Part shown: piece after piece, positions 1 through 57,828 of the stretch
Layout: every line of letters begins with the position of its first letter
Numbering within the stretch: the first letter of the stretch is position 1
DNA from: Sphagnum compactum
Lineage: Eukaryota
Direction: 5' to 3'
DNA: 64,000 nt
Assembly: GCA_965153455.1 (NCBI GenBank)
Contig: OZ234494.1
Location: forward strand, 1,364,001 to 1,428,000
Notes under the pieces: generated by a model
What the model was told of the DNA's origin: nothing
The model's input: only the letters and a program-made list of their open reading frames with translations
The model's database searches: none
Translations under genes and position numbers: made by a program

Positions 1-690
1 ATTCCAACCACAACAGAGAATGCAAACACATACTCAGACAAGGAAGATTGTGTGATATCTCCAGGCTACATGGATTGTAGAGAACATCCTTAAGAGACTC
101 CAAAAGGAACTTCATGTTTGTGAAGTATGCATTTTAGGGTTGAAGGGTTTGCTGGTAAAAGAAGTCACAAATCCAAAATTCTGATCCTCTGGAATGGAAT
201 GGCAGCAGAAGAGCCCAAGCTGGGGGATAGTTGCATCTGCCTCCTTCCATGTTTCATTTTGATTGTCAGAGTTTGGGGACCAATTTCTTCCTCAAACGCT
301 TGCAAAAATGACAAAAGATGTAGCTAGCTACCTGAGCGACAAGACAGGAGCTGAAGGTCCAATTTCCAGTCCTTAAAGAGCTTCTTCAGAATCAAGAACA
401 CCAGACACTAAGGACATGTCTGAAGATGTGAAAAGCAACAACTCCTTAAATAATGCAAAAATTCCTTACACAATGCGTGTGCAACAAACGAAGAAGTCAT
501 AACAGAATCACAAGAGAAAAGAAGACGGGACAGCATAGAAATGTTCATTCTAAGACCACAAACACTACAAGAAGATAACACATTGCCAAAAAAAAACCCT
601 TACCCTACAACATGCACATTCCTTCAAGAATTGAAGAAAGCCGAAGAAGCAGGACTTGTACTGAAAGTATCTGAGACAGAGAGCAGCTAG

Positions 691-1977
691 TTATCGCCAA
701 CGTCCTACTCTCTCGCGCTCATGCGCAGACTCGCTATACTTGCTCCAGCAGTAATCTTTGTTAAGAGGCACCTTGCCAATTTTATTGCCAGAAAACGGAA
801 AGTCGCCAAAGCTGCTCCTCAACACTCCCCTCAGCTGTGTCTTGCTCAGAAAGGTAAGGACGCCTGTGTTGACGTTGCCTTCATAATCAAGCTGGATCTC
901 ACCCTCTCCAGTTTCTCGGCCTCGCCATGAGAACTCAACGTCCTCGGCCGGAAATTTGGATGATGATAATGGAGGTTCCGTGGTGGAGCGAAGAATGCCT
1001 TTCAGAATCCCCATCCGGAAGTTTGCACACAGCAGGCGAGAGGTAGTCATCACAGCTGAGGGGTTCTGTTTTTTCTTCTGGTTGCTTTGATCATCGTCAG
1101 AATGACAACCCGAGCTGTAATCCGAGCAGCCTTCTTCTTCTTCTTCTTCCTCTGGTAGAGGCCTGTGGAAAAAAATGGACATCCTTCTATCGGCTTTTCG
1201 GTACTCCTTGTCCATTTTGCTGCAATCAATCGACCACTCACCCTCTACATCCACAAACTTTCCCTTCCCACCTGCTTCACATTCCTTGCGCATCGCTTCC
1301 GTCTTCTTCCTCTTGGCATTTGTCTCCTCATCTTCCCACAGCTTGCGCTTCTTCTCAATCTCACTCTTGCGGTCCCAGACAGCTGCTCGGTTCTTACCAA
1401 CCACAATCCAACGGGCACCAGCGTCACCAGGAGCATCAGCACTAATTGTGTGCAAACCCAACTCTTCAGCAGCTTCATGTACTCGTTGTCTTTGTTGGAT
1501 CTGAAGCACCAACACCTCTTCCTTCCCCGTTTCACCAAACTTCTCGCGAAGAAATCGATGGCTATCGAATTCAGCCTTCGCATTGTCGTCCAACCTAAGG
1601 TACTGCTTATCCCTCGCCTTCGCATTCTCTAGTAAGAACCGCCGATTAAGCTCCAGTTCAAGCTGAACCAGATGCTCCGGAGGACCTTGCAAGCCATTGG
1701 AGAGGGCAGTTTTGAGGCTATCACTCAGAGTGGCGATGGTGCTCGCAGATTTGATCTTGCACCCATACAGTTGCAGTTGAGCGAGCCACCAATCTTTCGA
1801 TCGCTTCAATGGGGTTGCCGTCGTGCTTTTCCGCTTAGGAAAAAGCCAGGCATTCAGGTTGTCGATTGTCTCTCGACATTGGCCCTTGTACGTAAGACCT
1901 GCACCAGAGCACTCAAAGGGAGGCGAAGAAAGGGGTTTGATAACAATAGGTTCAAGCATGGGAAGGCTCAAATCCAT
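691..1977 (-). CDS. Intronless 428-aa uncharacterised protein with motifs resembling a fungal hypothetical-protein family (HGT candidate)
   Basis: Single uninterrupted ATG-to-TAA ORF, visibly richer in GC and CpG than its flanks. Motifs: N-terminal DWWLAQLQLYG...PEHLVQLELEL, central KAEFDSHRFLREKF, an acidic tract, and C-terminal FSWRGRETGEGEI...GVLTF...FSGNK...WSKYSESAHERERVGRW. Family resemblance is from memory, not a search. Confidence 0.8.
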   Translation of the reverse strand: MDLSLPMLEPIVIKPLSSPPFECSGAGLTYKGQCRETIDNLNAWLFPKRKSTTATPLKRSKDWWLAQLQLYGCKIKSASTIATLSDSLKTALSNGLQGPPEHLVQLELELNRRFLLENAKARDKQYLRLDDNAKAEFDSHRFLREKFGETGKEEVLVLQIQQRQRVHEAAEELGLHTISADAPGDAGARWIVVGKNRAAVWDRKSEIEKKRKLWEDEETNAKRKKTEAMRKECEAGGKGKFVDVEGEWSIDCSKMDKEYRKADRRMSIFFHRPLPEEEEEEEGCSDYSSGCHSDDDQSNQKKKQNPSAVMTTSRLLCANFRMGILKGILRSTTEPPLSSSKFPAEDVEFSWRGRETGEGEIQLDYEGNVNTGVLTFLSKTQLRGVLRSSFGDFPFSGNKIGKVPLNKDYCWSKYSESAHERERVGRWR

Positions 1978-2340
1978 GGCTAGTACTCACAGTCGCACGC
2001 ACAATTCTTCTACATACACAAAGCTATCAAAACCGCCTTCAAAAAATGGAGTCCTATCGGTTGTGCAAGCTTCTGAAACAGACAAACAAACAAAAAAACT
2101 GCAGACTATTTCCGCCAAGCAAGCCGCTACTCTACTACCCTAAGCGTTACATCAGGTACTCGACATACCTCATCATCATGCCACAGGGTGCAGCAGGGAG
2201 TACGAAGGAGAATGCCTATAGGAGGAGAGATTGGGTGACGGACGCTGGAAAACATACACCCGAGTTTTCAAACTTCAAACTTCAAATTAGTGTCGTGGCG
2301 GGTTAGCATCAGAATTTTGTCAGAATCGGAATCTAACTTT

Positions 2341-2472
2341 CCCCCGGGTGGTGATTCTTTCATTGCATTGCCGTGTTTAGCGAGCGGCGGGTGAGAAGTT
2401 AGAACTTAAACGTCCCTCCCCCCCCCCCCCGGTGGGTGGTTCTTTCATTGCTTTGCCATGTTTAGCAAGAGC
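2341..2472. repeat. ~45-bp imperfect direct duplication upstream of the 428-aa gene
   Basis: ccccgggtggtgattctttcattgcattgccgtgtttagc at ~2342 versus ccccggtgggtggttctttcattgctttgccatgtttagc at ~2427. Confidence 0.7.
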
Positions 2473-2614
2473 TGTTGAACCACAAAAGCAAGCCTTGAGC
2501 TCGCATTTACTTACGTCGCCAACGACAAGCTCAAGCGGATTCGTTCATATCCGTTTCACCAAATGAAGAGCAGCCAAATGTTTCCGCGATGATGATAATA
2601 AGTGACTCAAAATG

Positions 2615-2741
2615 CTCCTGATTTACAGTGTCTTCTGGTCGTGAATCTCCGCCTCCTGATTTGGTTGTGTCTTCTGCTCATGAATCTCCTCCTCCTGATT
2701 TGGTTGTGTCTTCTGCTCATGAATCTCCACTTCCTGATTTG
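2615..2741 (+). repeat. 39-bp tandem repeat, about 3.3 copies
   Basis: Unit ctcctgatttggttgtgtcttctgctcatgaatctcctc; reads PDLVVSSAHESPP in one + frame. Confidence 0.9.
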
Positions 2742-5700
2742 CTTATGATTCTCCACTTGCTGCTGATCAATCTCCCAGTTTAATAAAAGAATCAAAATGC
2801 TTGTTTGCTTGGAGATTCATCATGTTTCATCATCCAGAGCCTCATGAAGTTGGACTGATGAGGAAGCTGTAGATTAAGCTTTCCCTTCCGTGCAAGCAGA
2901 ATTTGTAGCTTACTCTGTTTCCATGAACCAGGAAATTTGGAATGAAGATTGTGTGATTTGGAATGCAAATCAAGTGCCAATGCTTCTTGCTCTTCAAGCT
3001 CCTAAGTACTTGAACGTGGATTTGATGACAGAAATCCAGTGCTAATGTTTCTTGCTCTTCAACAAGCTCATGGAGTACAGTACACGCAAAGTACTTTTTA
3101 TTGAGATCACATGCACAGATTTGGAGATGCCTAGCACATCTGCAACTGAGATACAACTTACATATGCAATTACAAGCAAGAATAGATTTCTGAGATGTAT
3201 GTTTTGAGAGTAAACAAGACATGATCTAGTTCACAAATTGCAAGTTTGCTGCTAAGAGTACATGTCAAACGAAGCACCAAGAATCGAAGAATCAGTTGCA
3301 CAGCTTACAATCCTGCTTTGGCGTGTTCTACAAAACTCTCAAAGTAACCCTTTGGCATGTTCTATGAAAAACTCTTGAAGCATGAAAAGTTCATACAAAA
3401 AGATTGTACAAAACCTTACAAACAAGGGATAAACTTTGAAGCACAACAAGGCATGTGTTGGAATTCAAAAGATGCTTCAAAAAATCAAACACGTAAGAAA
3501 AGAGGTAGAAATCTAGCAAGAATGAATGTATACTTTCATAGGTGTCATGAACCCTCCATACCTCCGATTTTAAGCCAACTTGATAAGAAGTAGGAATCAA
3601 AAGATGAGAAATAATTGAAAATAAGGTCATCGAGAAATAAGATTAAAACAGCATATTAGGGAATAAGAGAAAAAGAAACCCAAAAAACATAAAGAATGAA
3701 ACTAAGGAACAGTTTTTCAGACTGCAACAATCACATGCATATCCAAGGACCTTCAACATGTTGTATGGTATTGATGAACTGCCATAACATCTCCATTGAC
3801 CCCATCGTCTTTGAGTAGTGGGTGAAGGTCATGTATTGATCAACATATTGAATTTCTACCACAAGACTAGCAATAATAACAAGAAACTCAACCATGATAC
3901 TAATGAGCTCAACAAAACCATGAGGAAAAAGGATGTTTTCATTAATATATCTTAACACTTACAATCTAAGTCACGATTAAAAGAATTGAGAGATGACTGA
4001 ATAATAAGGTTATGATGATATTCCATATCTAACAACATAATCGCAACCAATCAACTAGCATAAATGAAAGGAAACCCAACCCTGATGAGAATCAAGATAT
4101 CTTCTTACTCATTGTTACAAAAGCCACAACAAAGTTTTAACTTTTCCTTTAAGTCAAAAGAAGACTTCCAACTAAGGATTTATAAAACAAGGAAGAAGGA
4201 ACACAAAGGGAATGAACTAGAAAAAAAACAAAAACAAGCAATATGAACAAAAGTGACAAGCTCTCACTTCTTCAAAGACCATCAACATTGTAACATGTAT
4301 GATAAGAACTAATCTATCACAACTTCCCCACTAACTCTATCGGCTCCACTAACTTCATCAAGTACCTACAATGGGTATAGGTCAACGTAAACATTAGCTT
4401 GTGTACTTATAAGTACAAATTAAGCTCACAAAATGAATTAGCTTGGAAAGGTATAGAGATCGACATAGTAGATAGCAGTTGGGGCCTCTTGTACCTTAAC
4501 ATGTCATTTAAACTCATCACTAGTAACGACTTGAATGCAAAACATCTACTAAAGTTAGTAAAAAATATATCTGTGAAATTGCAAAGAAATCTCCACAACA
4601 ACATTTGAAGGTGACATGGCTAAGTCATGTCAGAGCCTCGTGAAAGTCCTTCATAAAATGTCAAACCATCACTTTGATTGTCAAGCATTAGCAAAAAAAG
4701 TTTAGCGTATCTATACTTGCTAGCGAACTGTCTACTATTGATATGGATGGAGGTTAATGTCAAACATTAACCAATGTATTTAAGTTCCTGTCACAAGACC
4801 AGCAGTAAAAGGAAAACTTTGCCAGGATGTTGGCCGGCTCACCAAAACATAAGATGGAAGACCCAAAAAACACTTCAAAGAAAATGGAATATGAAGACAA
4901 AGAAAGAAAAAAGGGAGAAGGCCAAGAAATGGAAAATCCCAAAAAAGAAAGGGGGAAGAAAACAGAGAGAAATAAGAAGGAAAGCTTTGCAAGCAAGAAC
5001 TTACAGGATAAAGTTTTAGAAAAGCTCCCTACTTGTCCTGACTTGGGATAGAAAAGCCTTTGAAATGGTCATTTTGAACATCCCAACTGCAGAAACGCCG
5101 AACAGAAATCTGGCTTTGTCAAAACCAACCTCTTGTTTGATTTAAAAGAAACTTTGGTGCGTAACCTTTTTCCCTCAGCAGACAAATCAAGCTCACCATT
5201 TGAACTCGTTGGTGATACAAAGCCTTAAGAACGTGATAAACTGACTATTGACCACTCCAAATTTCACAGAATATTGGAGTCCACATGAGGCATGCAGAAC
5301 AAATATTATCCATATCATCACAAATGCTGTGAATTTCTGCTACCTACACTTAAAATCAACCTAAATAGAATTGAGAGATGACCTGACAATGAGGATATAT
5401 ATATATAAGATCTGAAATAAATAACAGCAACAATCAGCAGTCAAGCATGAAAAAAGAAAAAATTCAACCCTAAAGAGAAGAGAAAACCAGACCAAAAATT
5501 AAGGAGCAGTTTGAACAACAGCAATGGACATACGCATGTTTAGGGACATGTTATACATGTGTTTCTACATGTTCAGGAATACTAAGCCCTTGATGGTCCC
5601 TGAACACACAGATGACCATATTCTCTACTAACCATATTGCTGGACCGGACAGGTTTAGCAACAGAGTGACTCTCTCTGTTGCTAACCCTAGGCATCCTGA

Positions 5701-7564
5701 AAACAAAACTGATATCAACACACCTGCCTCCAAACTTGTGGTGCAACAGTTAGATTATCTCATCTGTGGCTGTGAAGGAGTGTTCTGGCAATTGTTTAGT
5801 CTACCAGGACAGCTCCAACAAATGAGCTCCTAGCATTTCCCCTTGAATGAGAGAATAAGAATTTCACTCTTGATTCAGCATCCAGCTTCACTCCAATGCA
5901 ACTGGGTAGGCTTCACAGAAGCACAAACAGGCTGCAAAACAGTCATTTGGCGGAAGGGAAAGAGCTCAAAACCTCCAGAATTCATCTTGAAAGAATCTCA
6001 GACTATTGAGCAGAATCTGTTTGAACTTAAGATGGCAGTACTCTTGTGACCTGGTGCTGGATTGAACAAGAATCAAGCATAACCAAATAGTACTAAGTAA
6101 TGTGAAACCGTAAACCCTGGACCATGCATTCTCTCAGGCATTCCAATACAAGGATCAGTGACGCTTGGCAGATTACTCAGTCAAAACTTTCAAGGAGACT
6201 TAGGCTTAACTTTTTTTTGTTAAGTCCCTCTGCTGCTCCTGTTGTTTGGCCTATTTTGGGAGGGTCACTCTTCACAAAAATTGACTCTCTACTATCACTT
6301 CCAGTAGTGTGGCTAGAGGTGCAATTTCATACATCACCAGCACACCAGGTTTCTGCCACAAAACCATCAGCTACAGAAATACTCAGCCTTGATGCTGGCT
6401 AGGCCAATAAAAGCTAGAAGCGAACGAGAACACTGATGAAAGTAAGAAGAAAAAAGAACACCAAAAAGAGGGAAAGATTTAGAAACCTAACAAGAAAAGA
6501 GGAAGAAAACAAGAGACAAAACAAAAAAGAGAACTTTAACAGCGTGATCATTTTTAAGGCCCTTGAAAGAATCATTCACAATTTCAGAGTTGAAATCAAA
6601 CAGAGATTTTTTTTAGTCGAGCTCTGCACTTGCTTACCGAAAGATGCAATTGCATTCGGAATTGAATTGAGCATTGGTAACGAAAATTCGGGCGCAACAC
6701 ATTTCAAACCAGATCGTGAGAACCGAGTTGCAAGGAATAATGGAAAACGGGAATTATAGTTGGTTGAGAAAACGAGAACAAAAACAACCATGTCGAGCTT
6801 TTTTCTTACAAAAATTCAATGTTGTATTTCAGACTCACCAGGTTCTTTGCTTCTCCTTGGAGACCCACTCCGCTGGACAATAACCCAAGACCAGGTCGAG
6901 ATTCCGTAGGAAGGAACTACAGTATAAGAACTCATTATTAGAGGAGCACAAAGAGGTGCACTTAAAGACCATCTTGATCTTGGTTGTGCAGTTTGAGCAC
7001 AGAAAAAGCATGAACAAGATTTACAACTTGCAAGTTCAATGTAGTTGGAGAGAAACTAGTTCAAAACAGTTTATATTTTGAGTAGTTTTTATCACTAAGT
7101 AGAGAAGAACCCCAATGGGGGGAGGGAGGCAACAGCCCCATCGCAACTAAGTAGAGGGAAAACCCCCAAGGTGGGGGCATTTTCAAAATAAGCCCCTAGG
7201 TACAAGTAAGTAGATGCACCAAGGAAAAACAGACACTTGCAAATCTTAAAATCCTCCTCTACCATGCCCCAACACAAAACAGGAGGAAACAAAAAAACAT
7301 TCAAAATCCTCTTTCACCAAAAACCAAATTGATATCCTATCAATTGCATAATACCTTACAGTCCTAATAGGTACATGAACAAAAGACCATCTCATCTGAG
7401 GATCTGATGGACATTCTGTGCATTCCAATTTCTGAAAAAACTGAGTTTCTACAGTTTGCAAATGAAGATTTGGTGCTCTTGAATTGCCAGCAGCTGGCTC
7501 CCCTTCAATACAACTGGTGAGAGGAGTCTGCCAATGAGAAGACAATTCCATGGCATGAAAATGG

Positions 7565-8786
7565 TTATGAGGCAGCTGGGAGGAAGAGGAGATTTGCTCC
7601 ATTATTTGAAAGTCTTGTCCTTTGAAGTTCAGGCATAGTGACATCCAGAAACATTCCAAGGGATTTGTAACCTGCAGCTTTGTTGTCCAACTCATACCCG
7701 AATCGCGTTTTGAAGTCATTCTTCAAAGACGCTTGATCATATCCCTTGCCTGCTGGCTGGCCTGCAAAGATTTCTCCTAGCAGAGACCGGCAATCTGTTT
7801 GTAGCTTTGCCAACCTGATAGTGTTCAGGTTTGAATTTTGACCCACCTGATCAGCAAGCTGCACTCCTATAGTAAATGTCATCTTTCTCTTCTTGTGATC
7901 TAAGTCTACACCAGCACCTCCCAAGTCACAGTCAGAAGCAAATCTCTTCAATGGTTGTACTGGGGCTGGATCAATTCCTGTCCCAAAATTTTCCAAATTA
8001 GCTTGATTTTCATGTTGCTCATGTTGATCCAGCACCTTAAGTGGAAGCTGCAATCGATCAGGAATGATGGTGAAGAAGGAACCAGGCCATTCAGCAAGCA
8101 CACGATGCAACAATCCAAACTTGGCAGCTTGTGGAGTCGCCTGAAAGATTCGATAGCCTTTCAAATGCATCTGGTACAACACAGATGCAAATATTCTATC
8201 TTGCACATCAGAGATGATGACAATATAATTGTGTTCAGATGGAGAATGATCAAGTGCCCAGAGTAGTAAATCTGCCATCATCTCCTTGCAAACCCCATCT
8301 CCAGTACTTCCTGCAAACAATATCATTGCACACAATCAACAAAACACAAGAACTACATTAGAAACAAAATTTCAAAGGGATGGCCAACAGCGCTCATTCA
8401 GCTGCGATGTCTTACAACGTGCAGCATGTAAAGGGTTAAAGGGTTGAAACTTTACCTGCAGCTCGAGTATCGCTTGGAACTGGACAATGGCGCAAAACGA
8501 AGCCAGGATTCCGGAAGAGGATGCTCTGGACCACGTGCCAGGGCTTGCATTGTGCCGCACACTGCTGCCCAAGTAGATCACCGTAAGCATACACGGCACC
8601 CACACAAGATCCATGAAATCCAAAACAATTCAGCTCGTCAATTTGCTGCTCAACCCACTCGAGATCAGCCGATCCCGCAGGATTAGTACTACTACTACTA
8701 CTACTCTTTTGATCGCCAGCTGGATCAACAACTGCTGCATCAAGTGGTTGGTAGCTCAGCAAGTCCCACCACACGCAGGTCTCCAT
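7565..8786 (-). CDS. NYN (PIN-like, LabA/DUF88) domain plus C-terminal LOTUS/OST-HTH protein, MARF1/limkain-b1-like; 2 exons (8786-8456, 8310-7565), ~358 aa
   Basis: Exon 1 has METCVWWD, VYAYGD and LRHCP. A GT-AG intron (8455-8311) joins it in frame (G|GA). Exon 2 has MMADLLLWALD, YIVIISD and LYQMHLKGYRI (NYN) and LKNDFKTRFGYELDNKAAGYKSLGMFL (OST-HTH). Alternative in-frame ATG at 8795. Confidence 0.8.
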
Positions 8787-11319
8787 TTCGATCATCCAAT
8801 ATTTCTTTCTTAAAGATCGAATTGGAAACTTGAGACCTCCATTTCCAAAGTAGCCTACAAGTACTATCTTGTTTGGAAGAGCACTGGTATGCAAAGTCTG
8901 CGCTAGAAGCCTCTACACCTCCAACCCAAAACCAGACACAGCAACAAAAGTCTTGAAAATGAATCCACAAGGCACGTAAATGGCGGCACCAACTGGAAGT
9001 TGGATTGGGTAATCAATGTTAGGGGAAGCTGACAGATTCTAGTTGCAAAATTAGGGTACTTTCAAGTAGGTTTGAAACAAGAGACTGGCTGCCGGTAATG
9101 AAGAAGACTGATGTGTTTGCTGATTTCGGCTCTGCATTTATTGATGTAAAAATGACCATAACTGTATTGCAACAATCCAGGATCAGAAGCTAGATCTGAT
9201 TTCCTTTCTCAACTACCCACCAAATCTTATTGAATGTCTTACTAGCTCATCAAATAACAGCATAAGTATTACTGTTGAATGGGAGGTGGGTGTCTCCAAA
9301 GGGTGGAAGCTAAAGTGGTAGCCAACCTATTCCTTTGCTTGTTTGCTTGGTGCTTTGATTTGAAGACCAATGAATTCATAGTTTTTGCAAGAGAAGAATT
9401 CTGATGAGAGAGAAGAGAATTGGGACTATTTTGGTCATTGTAGTGTCAGAAGCTTCACAACCAGAAGTATGCCCCCTCCCCCCCACCCCCCCAAAAGACA
9501 AAAGAAAAAAAAATCGTCTACTAGTCTGTGGAGCTTGGAGGCAGTTAAAATTTCCCTCAATAGCACAAGGGAAATTTTCATCTTTCTTGGCACCTGTTGT
9601 GGTTTGTTTAATACCCAACATTTGAAGCTATTGTTGCTCATGAATGTGTGCTTAGTAAGTTAGCAACCTATGTGTGAATAACTTTGTCTATTATCAGAGT
9701 GGAACATTTTTAATTGTTAGGGGTATTGAGGAGTTAGTTTTTAGATCTTTAAACAAATGTCTGATGGGTATTCAATGGGTCTATGTTTTTATTATGAAAT
9801 TTTATTTATTACGGTATTTGCATCTACATCCATCAGGTATGACAAAATTAACACTTTGATTCATATGCCAACTACAAAAAACCCTTATAAATCAAGGGTT
9901 TCATTGCTTGTGGAGTCCATGTATGTCTGTAGATATTTGTTGATTCAACCTAAAAACACATATACCTCTATGGTCTCACCAAACATGGTCGCTATCCAAT
10001 GCATGAAATACCCACATTTACATGTCTTGGTTTCACTTCAACCCCAAATGGTGATTAAACACTTATTCTTGTCATGTTTATTTTTCAGTTTGGTGCAACA
10101 TCTCCCTTTACAGTGCTTTCGTGGAGTCTATTCATCCGCAATTCCATAAGATATCAGTTGTGCAAAAGAGTATTTGCATCTAAAGATACAGCTTTTTAGC
10201 TTGTAAACACACACACTTTACAATATACTAGAGAATGCAGTTATGTTCACCGTAAGCAAGCAAACAAGATTTTTGATGCAAATAGCAGACTTGCAGCAAA
10301 GGTGATAGCCATCTTCATTGTTATTGATGCAGCCTGCTTTTTGCATGGAGTCTTCTGAGCATGTCAATGACATTGTGTCAAAGATCTCATGTGTTCTTCT
10401 TTCCTAAACGTACCCATTATTGCATCATTGATACATCTAAGTTAGATGTTGTGTGGTTGTATTGAATGGTAGATAGAAATTTGATGCCATGCGGCCTGGC
10501 TCAGGAGGATGGTACTTAGTTGGGATTCTTCTACTGTAGTAGCTCGCCAGCTTTGTCACTAATTATATTATCTGGAGAAATGCTGATTACGGAGGAGCAA
10601 TACGTGTTCCAAACTTATGCTACCAATCAATATGCAAGTTGTATATCTCACGATGCTCTCTTTTTCTCTTGTATGTTGTGCCTTGTTTTTGTTACTTCAT
10701 TGGCCACAAAATCTCAAAAAATTGTTTCCTTCTGATTCCTTTGACTCCGATCCCACACTTACTACAGCAATGGAAATAGAAAAGTGATGGGATTGAAATG
10801 AGAGCAATACATTTTTTTACTTGAAATGAGAGCAATACGATTAGTACTTGAATATGATTTTTCACTTGACATTATTGCAAGTCTGATGGTTTTGACAATG
10901 AGACTTTTGTTCGGATCAACTTTCAAATCTTACAACACACTTGTAAAAGAACCATTCAGCATCCTGCAAGTTCATAGTTTTCAGAGAATTCTGAAAGCTT
11001 TATTTGTCACCAAGCATATGGAACTTTATGAGAACCCTACTTGAAAAAGAATGAGGTGTGTCTTCTTTCTCCAAACTTCAAACTTGCATCCAAATAAACA
11101 AAAATACAAAAGTGAAAAAGAAACACTTTATTTTTATTATACAAAATAATAATAAAATCAAAAAACACATAAATTTTTTTTAAAAAAAAAGATAAAAGGT
11201 TAAAAAAAAAACTAAAACATGAACCAAACATTGTTGAAATAACACACCTGTGCATTAGGCACGGGGTTCAAACTAGTATGGAACTTTATGAGAAAATTGT
11301 GTCAAAGTCTCCAGATTTT

Positions 11320-12450: not shown

Positions 12451-14954
12451 AAGAGAATCTGTTAAACCGGCAAATAAAAGTGGCCAAATTTGGAATCGGT
12501 AAACAATTTTTTGGTCATGTTGTGGTGTTCACATGTGTTCTCAATGCCTTCATTGTGATATTTTCTTGAAAGAAAAAATATCTCTTGCACATTAGAGTTA
12601 TCCGTAAAGTAAGGAAAAACACAGCACCAGAACCCTGAGTTTGGTCATACAGGGGGTGAGATTAACCCTAAACCTGCACAAAAGTACATTAGCATTCAAC
12701 GGGGGATGAAACTCAGAAAACCATCAATTTTGGGTGGTAAACTGAGTTTCATCCTGTCTTTCCTTTTTCCTGAGCGCCTCCACTGTTGTTGCTGCTCCAT
12801 ATATTTTCACTGCTGCTAACTGTACAACTACTATAATTAGTCTCAAGCCTTGTGCATTGAATGCTGGGTATCAGCATTTCATACTGAGATTTATTAAAAT
12901 GTCTTTTTACTTTGCAGATACCACTGAAAGAGGGGATAGTGGGTGAAAGGAGGCCCAAGACAGGGTGAAGACAGGGTTACTTTACAAATAACTCTATTAT
13001 GTCTAAAATTTATGAAATCACTTGCATAAAATGCTAATCAGCGAGCACTTTCCAAAAATATACCAAAATTGCACCCAACTTTGTTTTTTTTAATTAATCT
13101 TGATTTAATGAGAGTTTCAATAACAAAATTGTTTAATATTTTATAACTATCGTGCAATAGGTTAAACATCACAAAACCACATTAGTGCCCCATCATTCAT
13201 TGAGGACTAATACCAACATAGACTATCGATTTTGAATTCTAAACCCTCAAACCAATTGGTCTAGTTGTTATTGTACCTCAAACTCATGTTTGGCATTTTG
13301 TGCCGAAATAACTTTTTTTGAAAAAAAACAGGTTTGGCACTTGAGTTTGTAATTTTTTTATTTTTTCATTTTTTTATTTTTTGTAAAATTATTTTGACAA
13401 GATGAATGAAACATCACAATTCTTGAAACGGTTAAGAATACATCCAATCTTGAAAAATGCATGTTCTTTTTAATCTTTCTTTGTGTATTTCTTTTTGTTT
13501 TTCAAAGTGTTTTGTTTGTGTGCAAGGAATAGGTGCTTTCAAGTTTTATAAATATTGTAATGCTAGAAGTGAAAGCTTCACTAGGTAATAGATTCTTACA
13601 ATGACATTTTATTTGATTTGTTATAATTTTTCATTTACAAACTGTTAACGACAAAAATTATGTCCCCCAATCATTATCATCCTACAAGGGTGAGCCAAGT
13701 GACAAGGTTGACACCTTATCACTTCACGTAAAGAACTACCCTCTCTATCATATTTTATTACAACTACTCAAATAAGAAGTAAGAGGTCATACACACAATA
13801 AAGAAGATACGCGTATGTTGTCCACGACCCGACCTACCTCCCTATAAGTAATTTCAATTGGGAATAGAACATAAGGGAAGAAGCAATAAGAGAAAGGGGA
13901 AAAAAACCCAGGAATAATTACTCTCCCTGGTTTTATAGTACCTTCAACACCCCTAGGATATTACCTAGAGGATTTTCAAACCCTTTTACCACTACGGTCC
14001 CTCCTTTTCCTTACATGTTGAGTTTCTAGCGGCTCTGTTTGTCACCTTCAACTTTTGAGAAGTCCTTCTTTCGGTTTGTACCTTTTACAACCAGTTATTT
14101 TCCCTCTAAGTTTTTGCCTTTTGCTTACAGCAGTACCTTCCAGCTTGCAAAGGGTAACTTGTTGGTTTGTTCCCTCTCTAATTCCCACCACCAAAGACTG
14201 GTTGTTACCCTCTTATGGCAACTAGTAGCTTTGTGCTCTTGGGGCTACCCATGGGTAGCCCCATTACCCTTGTCTTTAAAAAAATGCAAAGATACCAACT
14301 CCAAAAAATATCCTACTTACATAACATGTCCTACTCTACCTTCAACACTTAGTATAATAACAATGCAACACAAGGGACTCGAGTCCTTCAACCATTTTCC
14401 ATTAAAATCATATACCAAGTACGTACATCTTTCTCCATTCCTCACCCCACTTTCAAAAGAAAAGAGTTCTCCATATCCCACACAAATCTTTAATGAATTT
14501 CCTCATCCTTTCCCACTTCCTCTATCCCCCTTCCCCCACATACCACATACAAGACCCACATTGACCCCTAAAAAATATGGCTCTTATCATAATCCCTTCA
14601 TATAAATTGCTTAGATGATTGGGTGAATTACCACCAACCACTCACTAATTCGAGCTACCTAGTCCCACTAGCTTCACCCCTTGGGTAAAGGACGTAAGTC
14701 TACCACTAGTAATTAATAGTCATTATGAGACTTATAGAACTAAATAGTATAGAGATTTTTACCCATTAACACATACATACCTGAACTTGCACATTTTTCT
14801 AATATGTGTCCATAGTGTAAGAATCATCATACTTGCATCTTAAAGATACCATGTGCATCTTAATGTAGATTTGAGATAGGTAGGTATCATACATGTGCAA
14901 AGCAAACAGCAACAACCAAACAACAAAAAATGATAAATTCTATGTTTTGTAGAA

Positions 14955-16640
14955 TGGACAAAGAAGAGAGGTTGTTAGTTGTAGCACAAGAAGTCCAAGC
15001 CCTTTTTAAAGACATGCAATCACAAATTCAAGAGTAGGAGATAATACCCCCACCTTTCAAAAGACCTATTGGAAGGCCACAAAAACTAATGGAAACAACA
15101 TTGATTTCAAAAAGGGAATTAAGAAAGAGACCGTTGATGATGTAAACAATTCAAAATCAACAAAGAAAAGGAAAAGAGGTGCTTACACAAATTGGTTTGC
15201 ACCACACCTTTGGCCTTTGATTCTTGTAGTTGTGAAAAAACATGGTGATTTCATAAGTGTGATCCACTACCTAAAGACATTTCATAGAAAGCCAAAAGAA
15301 GTTAGTGGTCCATATGAGAAGTTGAGTAGAGGGTCTTTGTATGAGTGGTTCACCCCAAGAGGGGAACTAAAACCACATATGAAAATTGTTGTAGAGAAAG
15401 GGACAATTTCCATTGCTGCAAAAAAACATTTTTTAATTTTTGAAATAAGACCAGAATTGAAAAATGAGTTGATTATCTTATTGAAAAACATGAATGTTGT
15501 TGGACAACGTCTTTTTACACCTATTATACAACCAATCATTAGAGGGATCTTTGAAAGTAAAGCACTTGAACTCTTAAAAGACTAGGCTTTAAAGTCTTTT
15601 AAAAGAGGATGAAAAATTTCATGAGGAAACACTTGAATTGGTCTTACTGAATACCCACAACAATTGCAGGGAAACTACCATCAACATGGGAGCAAAAAGG
15701 GACATTCATGGCACATTGAGTTATTTACCTTGTCAAAATGTACAACATAACCCCATGCTTGGTTGTCAACACAAATCAAATTGGAATTCACTTTGTACCT
15801 ATTGGAGGGGATCGAACATGGGAAAGAAAAGGAACCAAACACATACAAGTTTTAGGGATAGAAGACAAAAGACAAATTACAACAGGTGTATCATCTTCAA
15901 CAAATGGGTCAATGCTACCTTTGCAAGTTGTGTTCTAAACCACAACAAGTCAAATGCTCTCACCCATGAATGAAGGAAGAAAAAATTGTCTTTCAAATGA
16001 CTTTCATCTTACCTATAGCTCCAATCACTAGTCTAATTTGGAAACCATCAAAAGTTTGTTGAACACAACCTTATGCCCTCTCAAAAAATTCAAGTGGAAA
16101 AACTTGCATTATTAAAAGAGTAAAAGATGGTTTGGCCAATTAATTGCTGGTCAATTCATAAAAGCAAAAAAAATTGGATTGAATGAAGTTGAAGTTTCCA
16201 AAAGTGTGTATCATCTTCATTCTAAAAAATTGCATTGGCATACTTCAATTGTTAATGTCATCCTCCACCACCCATTCAAACATGTGTTTAAGAAAAAATT
16301 CATTATTGGACCTCAACAATCAAAAGCCAACTAGAAAAAGGTGAAAATCCTAAAGTTGACTTCATGTCAATTATGAAACCAAACCTGTGTGCATGGTTGT
16401 TTCATGTATGGATTCATGTGAAAAACATGAATGAATTGATTTGCAAAGGTTGGGAAAAAACAAGACTATTAAAAAACTTCAACATGCAATTTCAGCTTGA
16501 AGCTATGAAGGTCAATGTTATTACACCTCTCTTTTCAATTACTTTTAATTCAGAATTTATACAACACAAAGAGGAAGTCGATGACATAGATTCAAAGGAT
16601 TCCACTCTTGAAATCATGCAGAACTGTTTGAATGTTTAGA
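14955..16640 (+). mobile_element. Decayed pogo/Tc1-mariner-superfamily (DDE_1, CENP-B-like) transposase pseudogene
   Basis: Fragments across frames with stops and frameshifts: KRPIGRP, RKHLNWSY*IPTTIAGKLP, LVVNTNQIGIHFVPIGGDRTWERKGTKHIQVLGIEDKRQIT...GSMLPLQVVF, HLTYSSNH*SNLET, INCWSIHKS, HHPFKH, LCAWLFHVW...GWEKT. The order matches pogo-like DDE_1 transposases. TIRs not identified. Confidence 0.8.
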
Positions 16641-27655: not shown

Positions 27656-29830
27656 AATGATGTAAAGACAGTGGTGCTGAGCGTGATGATGCACTGCGAG
27701 GGCTGTGCAAGTACAGTGAAAAGAGCAGTGAAAAGAATCCCAGGTTTTTCACCTTCACAACCCCCTTGCAATTCTTTCGTGTGACATCCATCCATGGAAA
27801 CTTTAATCTTCAGATAAGAACTCTGGCCAGCACAAGGCTTTCTTGAAGAGAGACCTCACATGCACTTCGTGCTGCTTTTGATCTGGGGGTGGTCAAGGAC
27901 TATGGGAATCTTATGTGGAAGCTTGTCCTTGAAGCTATCATTCCTCTTTCTTTTGTCCTTGGATTGTTGGCCTTGGCCAGGCTGAATTCTCCTCGCATTT
28001 TCGGTATTCAATTGCAGTACCAGATTTTGTGTGGATTAGTATGTGCATATCTACACCCGCTGACTCGATCAGCTCCCAGCTGATCAAGTCGTTGTGTAGT
28101 CATGGCAGCTTGTTGCTGCTGTTTGTGGTGAAGGTGATAGTCTGATGCTTTGTGAGCAACTCTCATAAGGTTATGACTGTGCTTGTTGTCATGTTACCGT
28201 CGAATTGTTGTTCTGGAGATTTTCTCTGTGATTTCAAAGATGAAGTTCCAGTTTCATTTCAAAACTGGAAGATAATCAATTGGAGTCATGAATGTACATG
28301 TGTATAAAGCATAACAGTTTGCCTGAAGTTGTGGCTGGATTATTAATTATATGCTTATCTACACCCACCATTCAGAGCTGATGATGTCACTGGATTAGTC
28401 ATGGCAACAGCTCATCACTGCTCTCCATGATGAAGGTGATAGGGCTGTCGCTTTGTGAGCAACTCCCATAGGGTTATGACTGCACTCATTGTCATATTAC
28501 CTTCAGACTGTTGTTAAGGAGAATTCTCTGCAATATCGTAGATTTGTGGTACAAAGTTTGAAGCATTGAGCCCCTTGTCTGGTACTCAGCTTCATGGCTG
28601 CTTTGAATGTGGTATGCAATCAGTCACCTATCATCAAGGTAGTGAAGTCAAGTACTAAAGGGGGTGACCAGGTCACTGATCATCAAACTTTTGGAAATGG
28701 AGGGCCTTTTGAATCTGCAAGGGGAGATAGCCTAGAGATTATGGGGAATTTTGTCTAAGAAATTTGGTTGGACACTGTAGGGGTGACATCATATCAAGTT
28801 GATTTTCCTGGACAGAAAGTGACAGTCACTGGCAAGGTGAAACCGGAAGATGTTCTCCGCCGGGTTGCCAAAACTGGGAAGCACACTGAGTTCTGGCCAG
28901 AGGAGCCAAAGAAGGGAGGAAAAAAGGAGGAGAAAAAAGAGGAGAAGAAAGAAGAGAAGAAAGAAGAGAAGAAGGAGGGTGCTAAAGACACAAAGGAGGT
29001 AGATTTCCATCACTCACCAATAGCAAGTTCAACGATCATAGCCTCACCTACCTACAATTGGTTGCAATGGTCTATCATTGTCTGTCTTCATGGAGAACAA
29101 CCAGATCCTACCACCACTCAAGTAGTTTGCATGTTCTTGAGTCTTGATTGGTTTCAGGTTTCAACTTGATGCATTTTAATTGCAGCTGGATTTGAATATC
29201 TATGTTATAGCAAGATTTTACCTAGCAATCAAACCCAAAGGCATGTAGTTCTGCAACTGTTAGATCTGCAATTGTTGCCATACCCCAGTTCAATCCATTC
29301 CATTCTCCAGCTGTGGGATCTGAATGGGATCTCTCAAGTCATAGTGAGATTGCCTTTCTGTCTGGTACATAGGCCATAGATCACATAGATCAAGGTGAAG
29401 GAGTACAATCTTTCCATGAAATGGGAGGTATCTTGCCGTTGCCCTAACAGAAATACGGGTTGTTGTAACTTGTCAGGAGTCAAAAGGGGAGGCAAAAAAA
29501 GAGGAGAAAAAACAGGAGGGTCCTAAAGGAGGAGGAGGTGGTGGTGGAGGAGGAGGGGGAGGTGGTGGTGGAGGAGGAGGAGGAGGAGGAGGAGGAGGGA
29601 AGAAGAAAAAGGGTGGTGGTGGTGGCGGTGGCAGCGGTGGGGGTGGAGGTGGAGGTGAAGGTGGGGGCAAGAAAGAGGAGGCAAAACCAGAGGAGAAGGA
29701 GGATGATAAAAAGAAGGATGACACGGAGGCAAAGAAGAAACCTGAAAAGAAGGTGGAACAACCTAAGGAGGACCCCTTCCCTGTTACGTTTGTTCTCGGA
29801 CCTGACTACACTCGATACTACTACTACTAG
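27656..29830 (+). CDS. Heavy-metal-associated (HMA) domain protein, HPP/HIPP family, no C-terminal CaaX; exons 27656-27743, 28781-28998, 29477-29830; ATG-bearing first exon unresolved
   Basis: Spliced frame: NDVKTVVLSVMMHCEGCASTVKRAVKRIP|GVTSYQVDFPGQKVTVTGKVKPEDVLRRVAKTGKHTEFWP, then (KKEE)n, poly-Gly, and ...FVLGPDYTRYYYY*. It carries the MHCEGC metal-binding motif. All introns are GT-AG with consistent phases (660 nt in total). Confidence 0.9.
28030..28545 (+). repeat. Two diverged copies of a ~200-bp element in the HMA-gene intron (~28030-28232, ~28335-28545); third copy in CNGC intron 3 (~60213-60418)
   Basis: Shared blocks in the same order: ggatta, tctacaccc, agctgat, agtcatggca, tgaaggtgat, ctttgtgag, cata(a/g)ggttatgac, ttctctg. 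Confidence 0.8.
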
Positions 29831-32615: not shown

Positions 32616-34097
32616 CTATGCAGGCAAAAGCCTTGCATCAACCTCACCAACATCATGATGTGGATATGATGCAGAATTGATGTTATCATCATCATCATCA
32701 TCATCAGGCACTTTAGGCTTGTCTGCATCCAAAAACTCCATCCATTTCTTTGCCTTTGCATACTCCAGTGCTGGATATGCAAGGAAACCAAGAACCGAGA
32801 CTGTGATACTGAAGATGACTGTTTTCCAGGATGCTAAACACATGACCACAATCAGCAAGGCTGTTGCTGGCAGCAGCATGAGGATCATACCTAGTGTGCC
32901 AACCGGAATCTGGAAAGGGCGTACCAGTCCAGGGTTTTTCATCCGCAACCAAACAAAGGCTGCAAACTCAAGAAGCATGCCAAAGCAGTAGAGAAAATTG
33001 AGGAACTCCACAATCTCTTGGAAGCTCATCCAGGACAACAGAAGTACTCCTGATGCTGAACATATGATTCCCAGCACGGGTGTCCCATACTTGGAGCGGA
33101 CAGCAAATACCTTTGGGAGCATTCCTGTCTCAGCCATGCCCAGGAGCTGAAATGAATCACTACTCATCTCAGCTTCAAATAACCCCATGTTAGAAAGTGC
33201 AGCTGCTGCTTCAATCCACCACTTGAGTCCTATACCTCCAATGGCCATCCCAATGTCTGCAAAGTAACCATCTTCCCATTTATCCCTATCAAGCTCCAAT
33301 GCTCCTGTGCCTGCTGCCAATGGCACAACATATGCTACTATCACCAACACTACAGCCCACAGTAACGCCTTTGGAAAGGTTTTACTAGGGTTGTCCACTT
33401 CCCCTGCCAGAGTGCTCACTGAATCCCAGTAATTGAGATTCCAAAAGAGTGTATTCAGGTACATTCTCCAGTTTGTCTTGCTCACATCCATCACCAGCCA
33501 TCTCTGGACCCTTATCTTAGGAACCGCAAGAATCGCTAACACACAAAAGGGCAGGAGTGAAAAGATTGTGAGTACTACTGCTGTGATTCCAACAATGGTG
33601 AGCCCTCTATAGTTGAGATATGTAAGGGAGAAGGTAATGACCAGGAGAGCTATGAGCCGGAACACTCCATCTCCAAAAACTGGAAGTGCACGCTTGAGAT
33701 AATCCAAAAAGAGCACTGGATACAAGGCATTGTCTGTTACTCCACTGATCCATTTCCACCACCCTTCTTGAAAACCCCATAAAGGCCCAAATGCTGCTGA
33801 TATCCACAACACATATCCACCATTGTCAGGAAACGCTGTTGCCAGCTCTGCTGTTACCAGTGCCTCTGGAATGCTCCAAATGAAAGGAAAGATGAGGAAC
33901 CCAAGAAGGGCTAACAATGGTCCTCCTGCTTTTACCGAATCCTCCACACCAAATGGTCCACCTGATACCTCATAGAAGATAAGGGCTATCAAAGGAAGAA
34001 TCTGTAACTTGGCTCGATGTTTCCTTGGTGACCGTCCATGCAAAAGCTTGTCCACTTCTCTCTTGATTTCACCTTGGGTAGGGGAGCTATCCCCCAT
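32616..34097 (-). CDS. Polyamine uptake transporter PUT/RMV1 (LAT subfamily, APC superfamily), 493 aa, intronless CDS with intron(s) in the 5' UTR
   Basis: Motifs [39 protein letters not shown] and [17 protein letters not shown], with about 12 hydrophobic segments. First ATG is at 34097, preceded by an in-frame TGA. Acceptor at 34143-34144; candidate donors at 35366, 35433 and 35723. Confidence 0.95.
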
Positions 34098-35882
34098 TGG
34101 AACTTCCACTCCTCAATGGCTCTGAGTGTCAGGAATTGCACTCTGTAGATCCCACAACACAAAAAAACAAAGTTGACGATCAAGAACTGTCTCAAGAAAC
34201 CAGGTGAGATTTACACAATTGCCAGCTGATATGTTACATTACACAGTAAAGAGTCAGTTGAATTAGGGACCATGTATTCGAAGATCAGAATCCTTTTGTA
34301 AGAGAAATTCAGCTACAAGTGTTCAGAATTGAAAGAAAATGGGACAAAAACAAGATGTCCAGCCAAAAACTTTTGACAGTTCCTGATTGAAAAAGAAAGC
34401 CCAATCTAGGGTTTCAATTTGTGTGCTCTCAAAAACAACCACAAAAGAATAAGACTCCATCAACTCTTGGTTCTCGTACAATCAGTTCAACTATTTGAAA
34501 TCATGTGTTTTGCATGATGAAACTGCAGAGCAAGCTCATGCAAACCTTCGAATGAAACATTGACTCTCTCCAATGTCTGGCATGCTTGTAAAGTACAAGT
34601 TGAAACCCTCACACAACAAATACCATTCATACCCGGTCTTGTCTGTTCTATAAAAATGAAGCTTTGTTAAGCAGGAAAATGGATACCATACACATATGGC
34701 AAGACCGAAATTTCAGCTGCTGCAGAACAAAACACACAAGGACACTCCAGAATCTGCAAGCAAACCACAAAAACTCTTCACCGATACCTTGGAATGTGGC
34801 AAGACAATACAAGGACTATTCCTCTGCAGCAGACAAGGGCAATTAAATATGGTGGTTGACAACCAGAACATGCAAAACATATCTTTGAAGACACTCAATT
34901 CCCCGAAGACACACAATTCCTAAATCAGCACTACTATCCCTCAAAACATCAGCATACCCCTTTGCCACACCATTTTCTTGGACAAAGGTTTGGTGGGGAA
35001 CTTCAACCCTGGAAATTTTGTCATGGCAGAGCCATATAAACTGAAACATATCACTTCTATGATGGACAGACATCAGAGAGGTTACAACATATCAGATTGA
35101 GATTCTACGGGAGAGAGGAGCCACACAACAAGACCAACTCCAAAGACAAATCATCTGCACAGAACACCCGCAACCTTAGAATGGCCAAATGGAGAAGAGG
35201 GTTCTCTAAATTTTTTTCAGTAAGGATTCTCATTGCAGCCATAGTTCACAATCTCCTTGGACAGGTATCCTGGAGTCAAGAAAGCCCCAATAGGAAAAGA
35301 ACATGAAATTACATGGAGAAAAAGAAATATAGACCAAAAGAGTTCAGGAAGCCAGTAAGCACTCACAGCTGAAGTTCAGCACCGTAAATGCAAAAGCACC
35401 AACGATTGAACCCCGGCATTAGAAAGAACTCACAGGTGCTGCTACACACCAAAGAATGCGACGACACCAAACATCGCATTCTTGTTCAAGTATTCAAAAT
35501 ACAGAAACCGCAAGTGCACAAGATAGCACCGATTTCTTAAGACACGGCCTACCACGACAGTAGTGCGTTCTAACATCACCACCAACACCACCACCGACGA
35601 CGACGACACTTTAACTACTTATCTGCAAAAGCTTGGAAATGCAATTCTACAATTGCGAAAGTGCTCTGGATCCACCAACTACCACTTCTCTCTGGGCTAA
35701 TCTCAAACCAGCAGATGGCTTACCGAGCCTCCCACATTCACCTCCGTTTTGACCGACAAACCACCCATTCTTCCACGATCAGTTAAGTCCTCCCTTCACT
35801 GGCTCCAGATCACATTTGGTTCAGAGCTTAATCAGAAAAAAGCAAGACCAAACGAAGGTCTGGAGCCCTCGGAAGTCCTTCA

Positions 35883-55000: not shown

Positions 55001-57109
55001 GTTAGTTTTTTGACCGCTTCTTACATTAATTTTTCGCATTTTATTTTTTCATGTAGGTAAGTTTACAAAATTCTTGGAAAGTTTCAACAAACTTCAAACT
55101 CAAATTAAAAAGGAATAGTTTGTTGCAAATCCCTTGTTTCAAAAAAAAAAAAAATCACCAAATTTTGGCTACATGAAGCTCCAATATGTAGCCCCCAAAA
55201 ATAGAATGATGCTTAAATTTTCTTATTTTTATATTATGTTTACAGCCAAATTTGAAAAATCATTTTATGGATGGTGATCACTTTAGAAACACCAAAAGAT
55301 TGAAAAACAAATAGGAAAAAACCCAATGAGTTAAGTGATAGTTAACACTCACCTCTACAAAACTCTCCTAGATTTTTGGACATTTGTGTATTTGTGGGGG
55401 AAAATTGAAATTCTTCGTAAAATCCCTCACATTTAGACTCATGTCTAATACTTAGTTTGTTGCTTGACACACATTTGACTTGTTCAAAATGATGAGATGA
55501 TTTTGTTTTGAGAGTTGTTCAAATTAGGTCTGTTTATCAAATTCTTTTAATCAATTAAAGTGGTGTTTTCATGAATGGATTTTCCCCTTGCAAATCACCT
55601 CATCACAAAATATACTACAATTGCAACCACCATGCACCAAATACAATACCTTGATAATACTCACCATGTTGCCAACATGTTTGATCATGAATATTGTACC
55701 CAACTTGCAAATATTTGCAAGTGACAAAGCCATCATCATGATCATTATTTTAAAATTATAAATCGCCCAATCGGTTACACATCACCCTTAAAAAAACACT
55801 ATCTAGTTTAAATGAAGTCCAAGTTGTGTAACAAGATTGGCAATTAATAATGTGTCCCCAATGACTTGCCACAAGGTATTAGGGTAATTTTTAAAAAAAT
55901 TATGCACTATGAAAAACTTGAAAAGTTTAAACACATTCCTTAACTCCATGCAACTGAAATTTTTAAAAAATCAAAATCAAAATTTATTTTATATATCTTT
56001 ATTTTTGTAATGTAATCATATTAGAGTATACTATTTTTCAAGACCTTTTCAATGATTTATAAAAAGCTAAATATTTGAACAATGCTCACTTTTAAATTCA
56101 AAAGTCACCACGGCCCAGACTCAAAGGAAGCCATCACCTTTCCTCATATAATATTATCTACACTTATCTGTGACACTTGCATCCAAATGACTTTTTCTCC
56201 CGGGACTCCTAAAAAAAAAGTCCCGAAACTGTCCCAGTTCCAATATTCAAAATGAGAATGCATTCAAAGTAGTTTTGAAAGTGCCTCCCTTTTCCTCTCA
56301 CACATTTTCATTTGTGTAAAATGCACCTTTCTTTTACAATGACATTGAGTGTTGACTCAATTTCATTTGGAGGCATTTTACTTTGTTAAAATTCTAAGAA
56401 AGACATTTTTGTTGTTTCTTTTAGGAGTTGGTCGAGTACTCAAGTTAGGATCACAACCATCAACTGATTTTCTTTTTTATTAAAAAAAAGTTAGTTCAAA
56501 TTCCACACTAGTTCCTTCTTTATTCACTTTCATAAAATTTCAAACATTTTACAAATTAATGCTCACTCTTTTTATGTTCACATTCAATTTTTTTAATCTT
56601 TTTTACACACCCTCCCCAAGTGTCCAAGATTTGTAAAAAATTGTAAATGTTTATTTTTCTCTTGTATATAAGGAATAATAAAAAAAAAATGAACCCTTCC
56701 TATGCATAGGTAAATAAATGCTCACTCTCATTATGTTCAGATTCCATTTTGTTTTTTACTCACCTTCCAAAAATCCCAAGCCCTTAATAATTTTTTTAAA
56801 AAAACCCATGTTTATTTTTTGTTCTACTTAGGAGACTTGGTATTTGTGTAGCATTTGAAATACAATTTTTGATTTGAAAAGGGAACCCAATTTGTGGTGA
56901 AATATTGTTGGAGACAATGTTTTTTTTTTTTTTTGGGATAATGTTTTTCATTTTTGAAACCAGAATTTGGGATTTTTTAAAAAGTGTAAATTCAAGTAAT
57001 TGTGCTAATTATCAGGGGAAAAATCGTCCAATTTTTATATTAAAAAATGGGAACCAAAAAAAAAACCCTGTTCAGAGACCTAATTTTATTCCTTGTGCTG
57101 TGTTTTCCA

Positions 57110-57445
57110 AAAGACCCGAACAGGAGGGTTCTTTTCCAAATTTTCCCAAACGACGGGAACCGGGGGTTCTTTGATTTCCAAAAATTTCCAAAGACCGGAA
57201 CCAAAGGATCTTTGATTTGCCGAAATTTCCCAAGTGATTGGAACAACCGGAGGTTCTCTAGGCTAGCGAATTCCCAAAATTTTCAAAATCCCGGAAACCA
57301 CCGGAGGTTCTCTAGGCTAGTGATTTCCCAAAATTTTCAAAAGCCCGGAAACCACCGGAGGGTCTTTGATTTTCCCAATCTTTTGGATCCGGGGGTTTTC
57401 TTTTACTTTCACTTTTTTCCCCAAAAGACGGAACCGGGGGGTATG
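57110..57445. repeat. gaaccgg/ggttct-rich MITE-like repeat containing a 54-bp tandem duplication
   Basis: ccggaggttctctaggctag...cccggaaacca at 57247 and 57301, with a partial third copy at 57355. Confidence 0.7.
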
Positions 57446-57634
57446 AGCAACAGCCCTCACACTGGGTCACAATGGTTCCTTATTTTCATAAAGCTCGGAG
57501 TTCTCACGGGCGCACCCCGCGATGTTCGCAGGAGGACCCGCGATGTTCCCGTGCTCTGCGCGACAACCGAAATTCGCACGGCAAACAAAGGAAGGAAGAA
57601 TTTTGTGCTACAATCCCGAGAGAGTATGTGCATC

Positions 57635-57674
<40 letters not shown>

Positions 57675-57828
57675 GATAGTGCATCCGTGTTGCAGCGACG
57701 AGAGGGAACAAACGAAGAAGCTTCGAGATGTCGTCGAGATGTGGACAAGGACGGCAGAGAAGGATTTTTGTGTAATCGGGGGGCGGGGAATGGCATTGTT
57801 TCTTCGAGAACATCATCAGGGTTTCTTT

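Follow-up and report, generated by a model that had tools for sequence, protein, structure and literature searches.

An intron-free gene of the moss Sphagnum compactum from a protein family that mosses probably acquired early from a fungus

A stretch of 64,000 nucleotides (nt) from Sphagnum compactum (assembly GCA_965153455.1, contig OZ234494.1, positions 1,364,001 to 1,428,000 of the forward strand), from here on called the window, contains not a single N and is thus gap-free. Near its left end, at 691..1977 on the minus strand, lies an open reading frame (ORF) for 428 amino acids that starts with ATG, has an in-frame stop 9 nt upstream of the start and forms a single-exon coding sequence of 428 codons followed by the stop codon TAA at 691-693. 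The initial annotation of the window had described this ORF as a full-length intronless gene of fungal appearance in a plant chromosome. The ORF is indeed intron-free: the frame is unbroken, and two contigs of the metatranscriptome X15 align collinearly to 266-1462 and 1484-2258 of the window and show no joint in that span. Full-length orthologues of 427-431 amino acids are present in three metagenome loci (L001, L002 and L005; see below). The retained CpGs that had been remarked upon were also found, the observed/expected ratio being 0.73 in the ORF and only 0.34 in the window overall, with still lower values in the 3′ flank (0.21) and in a neighboring permease ORF (0.19); the GC content of the ORF is 0.50 versus about 0.40 in the flanks.

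The motifs, basic clusters and acidic tract quoted in that annotation were all located in the protein: WWLAQ at residues 63-67, PEHLVQLELEL at 100-110, WRGRETGEGEI at 351-361, YSESAHERERVGRW at 414-427, the clusters KRKS, KKRK and KRKK, and a run of seven Glu at 276-282 within an acidic, GAA-rich tract (window 1122-1159). The length of the Glu tract differs among Sphagnum orthologues (indels of 3-9 nt), and short-read contigs stop at 1122-1159.

From alignments and AlphaFold2 models (predicted local distance difference test, pLDDT, 86.9 for the whole protein and 92.4 for residues 1-235) the protein can be divided as follows, all coordinates referring to the minus strand. A conserved N-terminal segment (residues 1-55; 1813..1977) with short beta-hairpins and the motif LFPKRK is followed by a SAP-like helix-loop-helix (residues 57-95; 1693..1809), which carries WW.AQ at 63-67 and was recognized by Pfam matches of homologues and by fold matches. 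A helical linker (residues 96-150; 1528..1692) that includes the motif RFLREKF leads to an R3H-like alpha/beta domain (residues 152-196; 1390..1524), recognized by the same two kinds of evidence, with the signature R163-x3-H167 (RQRVH), LGL at 173-175 and RWIVVGK at 189-195. Then comes a long basic helix (residues 197-238, modelled as helix from 197 to 235; 1264..1389) with KKRK at 209-212 and KRKK at 222-225, which is probably a nuclear-localisation and/or coiled-coil segment. The remainder is an eight-stranded up-and-down beta-barrel (residues 239-403; 769..1263), delimited from the model and from conservation counts, and a C-terminal helix (residues 404-428; 694..768) with the motif YSE.A.E.ERV.RW. 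The barrel carries the WRGxETGEGE loop at residues 351-360 and is interrupted by a disordered acidic loop (residues 272-314; 1036..1164; pLDDT 46-50) that contains the length-variable Glu/GAA run.

The SAP-like and R3H-like assignments came from homologues. When 40 members of the family were compared with Pfam, R3H was found in eight and SAP in eight at E ≤ 1; seven R3H matches, placed individually, fell on residues 152-193 of the window protein and seven SAP matches on residues 65-91. The N-terminal model superimposed on the R3H domain of Smubp-2 with Z 5.6 (Foldseek probability 0.96, E 0.2, 34% identity over 50 columns), on that of SPAG7 with Z 5.4 and on the SAP domain of Ku70 with Z 5.3 (root-mean-square deviation 2.1, 51 of 54 residues); for five other SAP domains Z was 3.4-4.0. 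These fold scores are individually weak and agree with the sequence evidence for the two domains. The structure prediction and Foldseek comparison that had been suggested thus yielded confident models with SAP-like and R3H-like superpositions, and 0 hits in the PDB at E ≤ 0.001 for either the whole or the N-terminal model; in a profile search of PDB sequences the best E was 0.35.

Several observations speak against the domain assignments. The window protein itself matched 0 Pfam families at E ≤ 1. The curated cut-off was passed by only one of the 40 members for R3H (P0096, 33.9 bits versus 26.8) and by one of the 40 for SAP (P0055, 24.3 versus 23.9). Of the 32 aligned members, only 17 have R163 and only 17 have H167; in the moss-type set the two residues are found in 4/12 and 9/12, respectively. 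All fold matches of the N-terminal model have Z below 7 and may reflect no more than a common arrangement, a low Z being expected for a SAP motif of 35 residues. Finally, the barrel matched only generic barrels (outer-membrane, de novo designed and Cap15), for which VIA-align gave Z 10.7-9.2.

Compared with known proteins, the predicted R3H-like domain resembles R3H (PF01424; Smubp-2, SPAG7, PARN) in its small size, its alpha/beta make-up and the order of its elements, R-x3-H being succeeded by a hydrophobic LGL segment and then a beta-strand; it differs in lying below Pfam detection in the window protein and in the variability of the signature Arg and His in mosses. To our knowledge its partner domains are unlike those of any R3H protein described. 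A full-text search of the literature for “R3H domain” together with “SAP domain” brought up nothing related, nor did the same search with “fungi” added. The predicted helix-extended loop-helix of about 35 residues is like that of SAP domains (PF02037; Ku70 C-terminal domain, PIAS1, Hcc-1), but none of the moss-type members scanned matched the SAP model at E ≤ 1, and the WW.AQ signature is specific to the present family. The barrel shares its topology with avidins, calycin-like and Cap15-like barrels, the substrate receptor GID4 and small outer-membrane barrels (Z 10.7-6.4 over about 100 residues), but these best matches are mutually unrelated, are 1-18% identical to it, have no motif in common with it and have no counterpart of the WRGxETGEGE loop. 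The likeness of the predicted barrel is therefore one of fold only and says nothing on function.

Seven residues are invariant in all 32 aligned sequences (A66, Q67, W351, G353, T356, E358 and G359), and R426 and W427 are each present in 30. The WRGxETGEGE loop of the barrel is nearly invariant, and no other feature of the family is as well conserved. Because the R3H signature is variable in its Arg and His and this loop hardly changes, the barrel is probably the functional core of the protein.

Relatives were sought by a word-indexed search (24 hits), a profile search (25 hits) and an exhaustive HMMER search. The word-indexed search returned one orthologue of 97% identity, unnamed proteins of 46-59% identity, two paralogues from Ceratodon purpureus (45 and 40%), whose contigs measure 25.2 and 16.7 Mb, and, with 25-37% identity in the part that aligns, proteins of the fungi Icmadophila, Gloeophyllum, Xylona and Glonium. 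The profile search added Exophiala, Peltigera, Gallowayella and Xanthomendoza (24-36%). All eight named relatives outside the mosses are thus fungal, seven from Ascomycota and one from Basidiomycota, with an overall identity of 24-40% over the aligned part. Homology spans the whole length of the protein, and WW.AQ and WRG.ETGEGE recur in named fungal proteins, so that the resemblance to a fungal family stated in the initial annotation is correct. No seed plant, fern, alga, animal, protist or bacterium was named among the 24 and 25 hits, in a database in which only about a quarter of the proteins are named; the same database yielded dozens of named plants for the neighboring permease. The earlier statement that no seed-plant family of this kind was known agrees with these named hits. 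A named protein of the model moss Physcomitrium patens was likewise absent from both sets of hits, though the species is named in the database; P. patens may, judged by named hits only, have lost the family.

The HMMER search gave 315 representatives up to E 1e-3, of which 73 reached E ≤ 1e-10 and 9 reached E ≤ 1e-30, all given without taxonomy. The three protein-atlas clusters listed, with scores of 0.93-0.94, were mostly from Ascomycota; with the atlas limited to named clusters there was no usable match. Four proteins of unnamed origin (P0062, P0097, P0100 and P0147; 581-845 amino acids) carry some modules, among them the barrel, in duplicate, which suggests internal duplication or fused tandem genes.

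For the phylogeny, 69 of 174 proteins spanned the profile and were used for a quick tree; the careful tree was calculated from 54 of these, after 14 rows of a large Ascomycota-type clade and the long-branched P0101 had been left out. The mosses form one clade of ten rows (support 98/88), inside which the Sphagnum-type proteins P0001, P0002 and P0003 (97/76) stand opposite seven other moss rows (100/100), among them both Ceratodon paralogues. Just outside follow P0027 (100/99) and P0028 (88/85), next a Xylona-type fungal group and then a Gloeophyllum group. A branch with 100/99 support sets the moss, Xylona and Gloeophyllum groups apart from the large Ascomycota clade of 24 rows, so that fungal proteins are found on both sides of it, and the midpoint root falls there. 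The phylogeny that had been called for thus showed the mosses as one clade with fungal groups as its named neighbors, the direction of transfer being unreadable from the unrooted tree.

We consider it probable that the family passed from a fungus to an early moss and has since been inherited vertically in mosses under purifying selection. The initial annotation had proposed a fungus-to-plant transfer kept under selection. The fungal-only named outgroups, the integration in the chromosome and the purifying selection (see below) uphold this; the proposal is to be amended in that the Sphagnum gene was not a lone recent arrival but one member of an old moss clade. The split between Sphagnum and the other mosses inside the clade would place the acquisition at or before the divergence of the two. 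The Sphagnum lineage and the other mosses parted several hundred million years ago. The moss relatives are 40-60% identical and the fungal proteins 24-40%, which indicates that the transfer would be ancient and the family inherited vertically since then. A recent transfer specific to the Sphagnum species was considered and rejected, the moss clade and the 24-40% identity to fungal proteins speaking against it.

The tree and the database also hold points against a fungal origin. The tree is unrooted with the mosses as one clan, and its topology also fits a root on the moss stem; the sister relation of the mosses to the Xylona-type group is weak (87/72); P0027 and P0028, which adjoin the moss clade, are of unnamed origin; and most database hits are nameless, so that relatives from liverworts, hornworts or algae could hide among them. 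Since the mosses form a single clan without an outgroup, topology gives no direction, which would have to be read from the distribution and from nothing else.

A transfer in the reverse direction, from mosses or an earlier plant to fungi, would be compatible with a root on the moss stem and with the close contact in which plants and fungi live. It is nevertheless improbable, since the fungal side of the family is much larger and more diverse (315 representatives of the family were found in all), comprises several deep paralogue groups parted by the 100/99 branch and extends over both Ascomycota and Basidiomycota; the moss sequences make up one shallow clade. The much greater diversity of the fungal proteins, the depth of their paralogue groups and their presence in both phyla are the reasons why transfer from fungus to moss is favored.

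Another reading, that the family descends vertically from a common ancestor of the eukaryotes and was lost in all lineages but fungi and mosses, gains some room from the small proportion of named proteins in the database, members from other lineages possibly being hidden among the rest. It would, however, require very many independent losses, and no seed plant, fern, alga, animal or protist is named among the hits in a database in which the permease finds dozens of named plants; we regard it as distinctly improbable.

It was also considered that a mobile element or virus had brought the gene separately into fungi and mosses. The family is large, patchy and, in the four proteins with doubled modules (P0062, P0097, P0100 and P0147), sometimes internally duplicated in what are taken to be fungi, and the window has high-copy repeats some 2 kb upstream of the gene. 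But neither the protein nor any of the 20 other window ORFs scanned contains a transposase, integrase or viral domain, and a single moss clade with species-like branching points to a single entry, which makes separate delivery very improbable.

That the gene sits in the chromosome of the recipient and is not a contaminant follows from independent data. The stretch 300-2600 is present in DNA runs of one organism (three studies), of three further organisms and of one moss metagenome. In the independent DNA run X7, contigs cover 1-1121 and 1160-4713, the sole break being the Glu-codon repeat at 1122-1159, which was skipped in the alignment as repetitive. A scan of metagenome contigs revealed five loci (L001-L005): L001, L002 and L005 are full orthologues of 97-98% identity and L003 is a partial one; L001-L003 are collinear with the window up to about 4500 and L005 up to about 5300. 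The gene and its flanks are thus shared by independent DNA runs and by four metagenome contigs, and plant genes (a permease and HMA, Ion_trans and cNMP_binding exons; see below) are found in the same gap-free window. The statement that the gene lies in one continuous sequence with plant genes therefore stands, and the suggested check for a break in coverage or at a junction showed gene and flanks to be continuous apart from the Glu-codon repeat. A fungal contaminant or chimeric assembly join, to which the elevated GC (0.50) and CpG of the ORF and the fungi carried by moss samples might point, was rejected as almost certainly wrong: besides the gene and flanks shared by the independent runs and four contigs, the flanks are 96-97% identical between species, and the closest relatives are moss proteins on the chromosome-sized Ceratodon contigs.

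The fifth metagenome locus, L004 (positions 359-1692 of a contig of 1.8 kb), is a moss homologue of 51% identity with a single frameshift near 1165, after which reading resumes in another frame; its second half equals the database protein P0030. The frameshift could be either an assembly error or the mark of a decaying or recently broken copy.

Between the window gene and its orthologues in L001, L002 and L005 the ratio of non-synonymous to synonymous substitution rates (dN/dS) is 0.18-0.21 at dS 0.044-0.055, as calculated from 12-15 differences that are synonymous and 9-10 that are not (binomial p 4e-5 and 5e-4 for the synonymous excess). The coding sequences are 98.1-98.4% identical among the Sphagnum orthologues versus 95.9-97.3% for the flanks, the reading frame is intact in all four, and the coding indels are all multiples of three (3 or 9 nt), most of them in or beside the acidic tract. 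Judged by these patterns of substitution, which provide the comparison of dN/dS in related species that had been asked for, the coding sequence is under purifying selection.

Six RNA-library runs, X15 among them, contained 35-38% of the words sampled; they come from four studies. The two X15 contigs (266-1462 and 1484-2258) have a depth of 8-12, and depth is 0 at 3000-3800. Such coverage of the block 266-2258 would be expected from an unspliced transcript about 2 kb long. On the minus strand, the upper end of the block under the RNA-library contigs would then be a probable 5′ untranslated region (1978..2258, in contig 1484-2258); past 2258 the X15 depth drops to 0-2.8, the contigs being blind to the true transcript end. 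A probable 3′ untranslated region (266..690) lies in contig 266-1462, in which 11 differences from the window fall within 266-690 and 8 within 691-1462. Against expression it must be said that RNA-library contigs can contain DNA and so are no proof of transcription, and that of the 288 reads placed from X24, a polyadenylated (polyA) RNA run of the same organism of which about 12% was read, 0 fell on 1-3400. The RNA sequencing that had been recommended thus gave X15 contigs over 266-2258 and no polyA reads of X24 on the gene; expression is likely, but conditional or low.

The combination of a SAP-like and an R3H-like domain, a basic coiled coil and a barrel suggests a nuclear, nucleic-acid-binding protein. 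The idea of a nuclear protein, put forward earlier from the basic clusters and the acidic tract, is strengthened, though not proven, by the two domains recognized in homologues and in the predicted structure. The scheme that we propose is that the family came from a fungus to a moss no later than the parting of Sphagnum from the other mosses and was then inherited vertically, kept by purifying selection; the predicted nuclear protein would be tethered to DNA or RNA via its SAP and R3H modules, and the barrel would bind a ligand or partner. We give a tethered protein with such a ligand- or partner-binding barrel roughly even odds. A bolder version, which we find unlikely, is that the family is a hitherto unrecognized class of SAP-R3H nucleic-acid-binding proteins whose new barrel with its WRGxETGEGE loop senses a ligand or foreign molecule. 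They would serve fungi, in which the family is large, patchy and often duplicated, in genome defence or non-self recognition; mosses would have captured the family some 400 million years ago and retained it for interactions with fungi, a role that has been proposed for HET and KP4.

Gene transfer from fungi to mosses is well documented (PMC3493653; PMC12513842; PMC11228847). Yue et al. described ten fungus-derived families in P. patens, among them HET and an ascomycete “hypothetical protein” (PMC3493653), and a survey of 2025 reported 1,809 families acquired by horizontal gene transfer (HGT) in 49 streptophytes, such genes being intron-poor (PMC12513842). The recipient, initially named as a plant, is indeed a plant, more specifically a moss, a group in which the uptake of fungal genes was already well known. 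Like the HET-domain superfamily, the KP4 killer-protein genes and the FB lectin, as these are described in the sources cited, the gene has few or no introns, lies among moss genes, is absent from seed plants as far as the named hits show, and has long been kept. It differs from these in belonging to another protein family and in having no named P. patens member among its hits, so that the family would escape screens centered on P. patens. Six locus tags of named family members were not found in the searchable literature; supplementary HGT catalogues lay outside the scope of this search and may list the orthogroup. The kind of event is therefore already known in mosses, and what is new here is the architecture of SAP-like domain, R3H-like domain, basic coiled coil and barrel with a WRGxETGEGE loop.

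No other plants have so good a record of fungal-gene uptake as the mosses, and each well-supported case informs on the gene sets of early land plants; here the family has been kept in both Sphagnum and other mosses. The analysis also provides a first domain description for a fungal family of hundreds of representatives, for which no Pfam model covers the whole. The role of the family could be sought in Ceratodon and Sphagnum, which offer simple haploid systems.

In the neighborhood of the gene, high-copy repeat fragments were found at about 4200-4800 and 5200-5600, 2.2 kb upstream, with a summed contig depth in the thousands in DNA runs. They are the sole parts of 1-6000 that draw polyA RNA reads, most of which continue into unlike sequence, and are probably pieces of transposons whose transcription takes place at other sites of the genome. 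A repeat search of 3400-6400 brought up nothing beyond short, weak repeats. These fragments are candidates for the decayed transposable-element relics noted nearby.

A Pfam scan of 19 further window ORFs gave matches limited to the permease, Ion_trans (weak), cNMP_binding and HMA; the “NYN locus” of the initial annotation was not located in these general scans. Clusters of ORFs of 126-256 amino acids are present at 7246-8912 (minus strand) and 14030-15973 (plus strand), the five longest (158-256 amino acids) without a Pfam match, and may be lineage-specific genes or decayed elements. An exon-sized ORF with an HMA domain (E 1e-4) is found at 28759-29169 on the plus strand, and on the same strand a multi-exon gene resembling those of cyclic-nucleotide-gated channels extends over 57044-63941, with a weak Ion_trans match at 58440-59354 and cNMP_binding at 62828-63487.

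The permease, an uninterrupted ORF of the polyamine-transporter type (32616-34112, minus strand, 497-498 amino acids), is 98% identical to a protein of Sphagnum troendelagicum, 70% to one of Ceratodon and 60-70% to polyamine transporters of many land plants. The neighboring genes thus mark the window as nuclear DNA of a Sphagnum moss and not of a seed plant. Its CpG ratio is far below that of the fungal-type gene, a contrast that may stem from different methylation histories.

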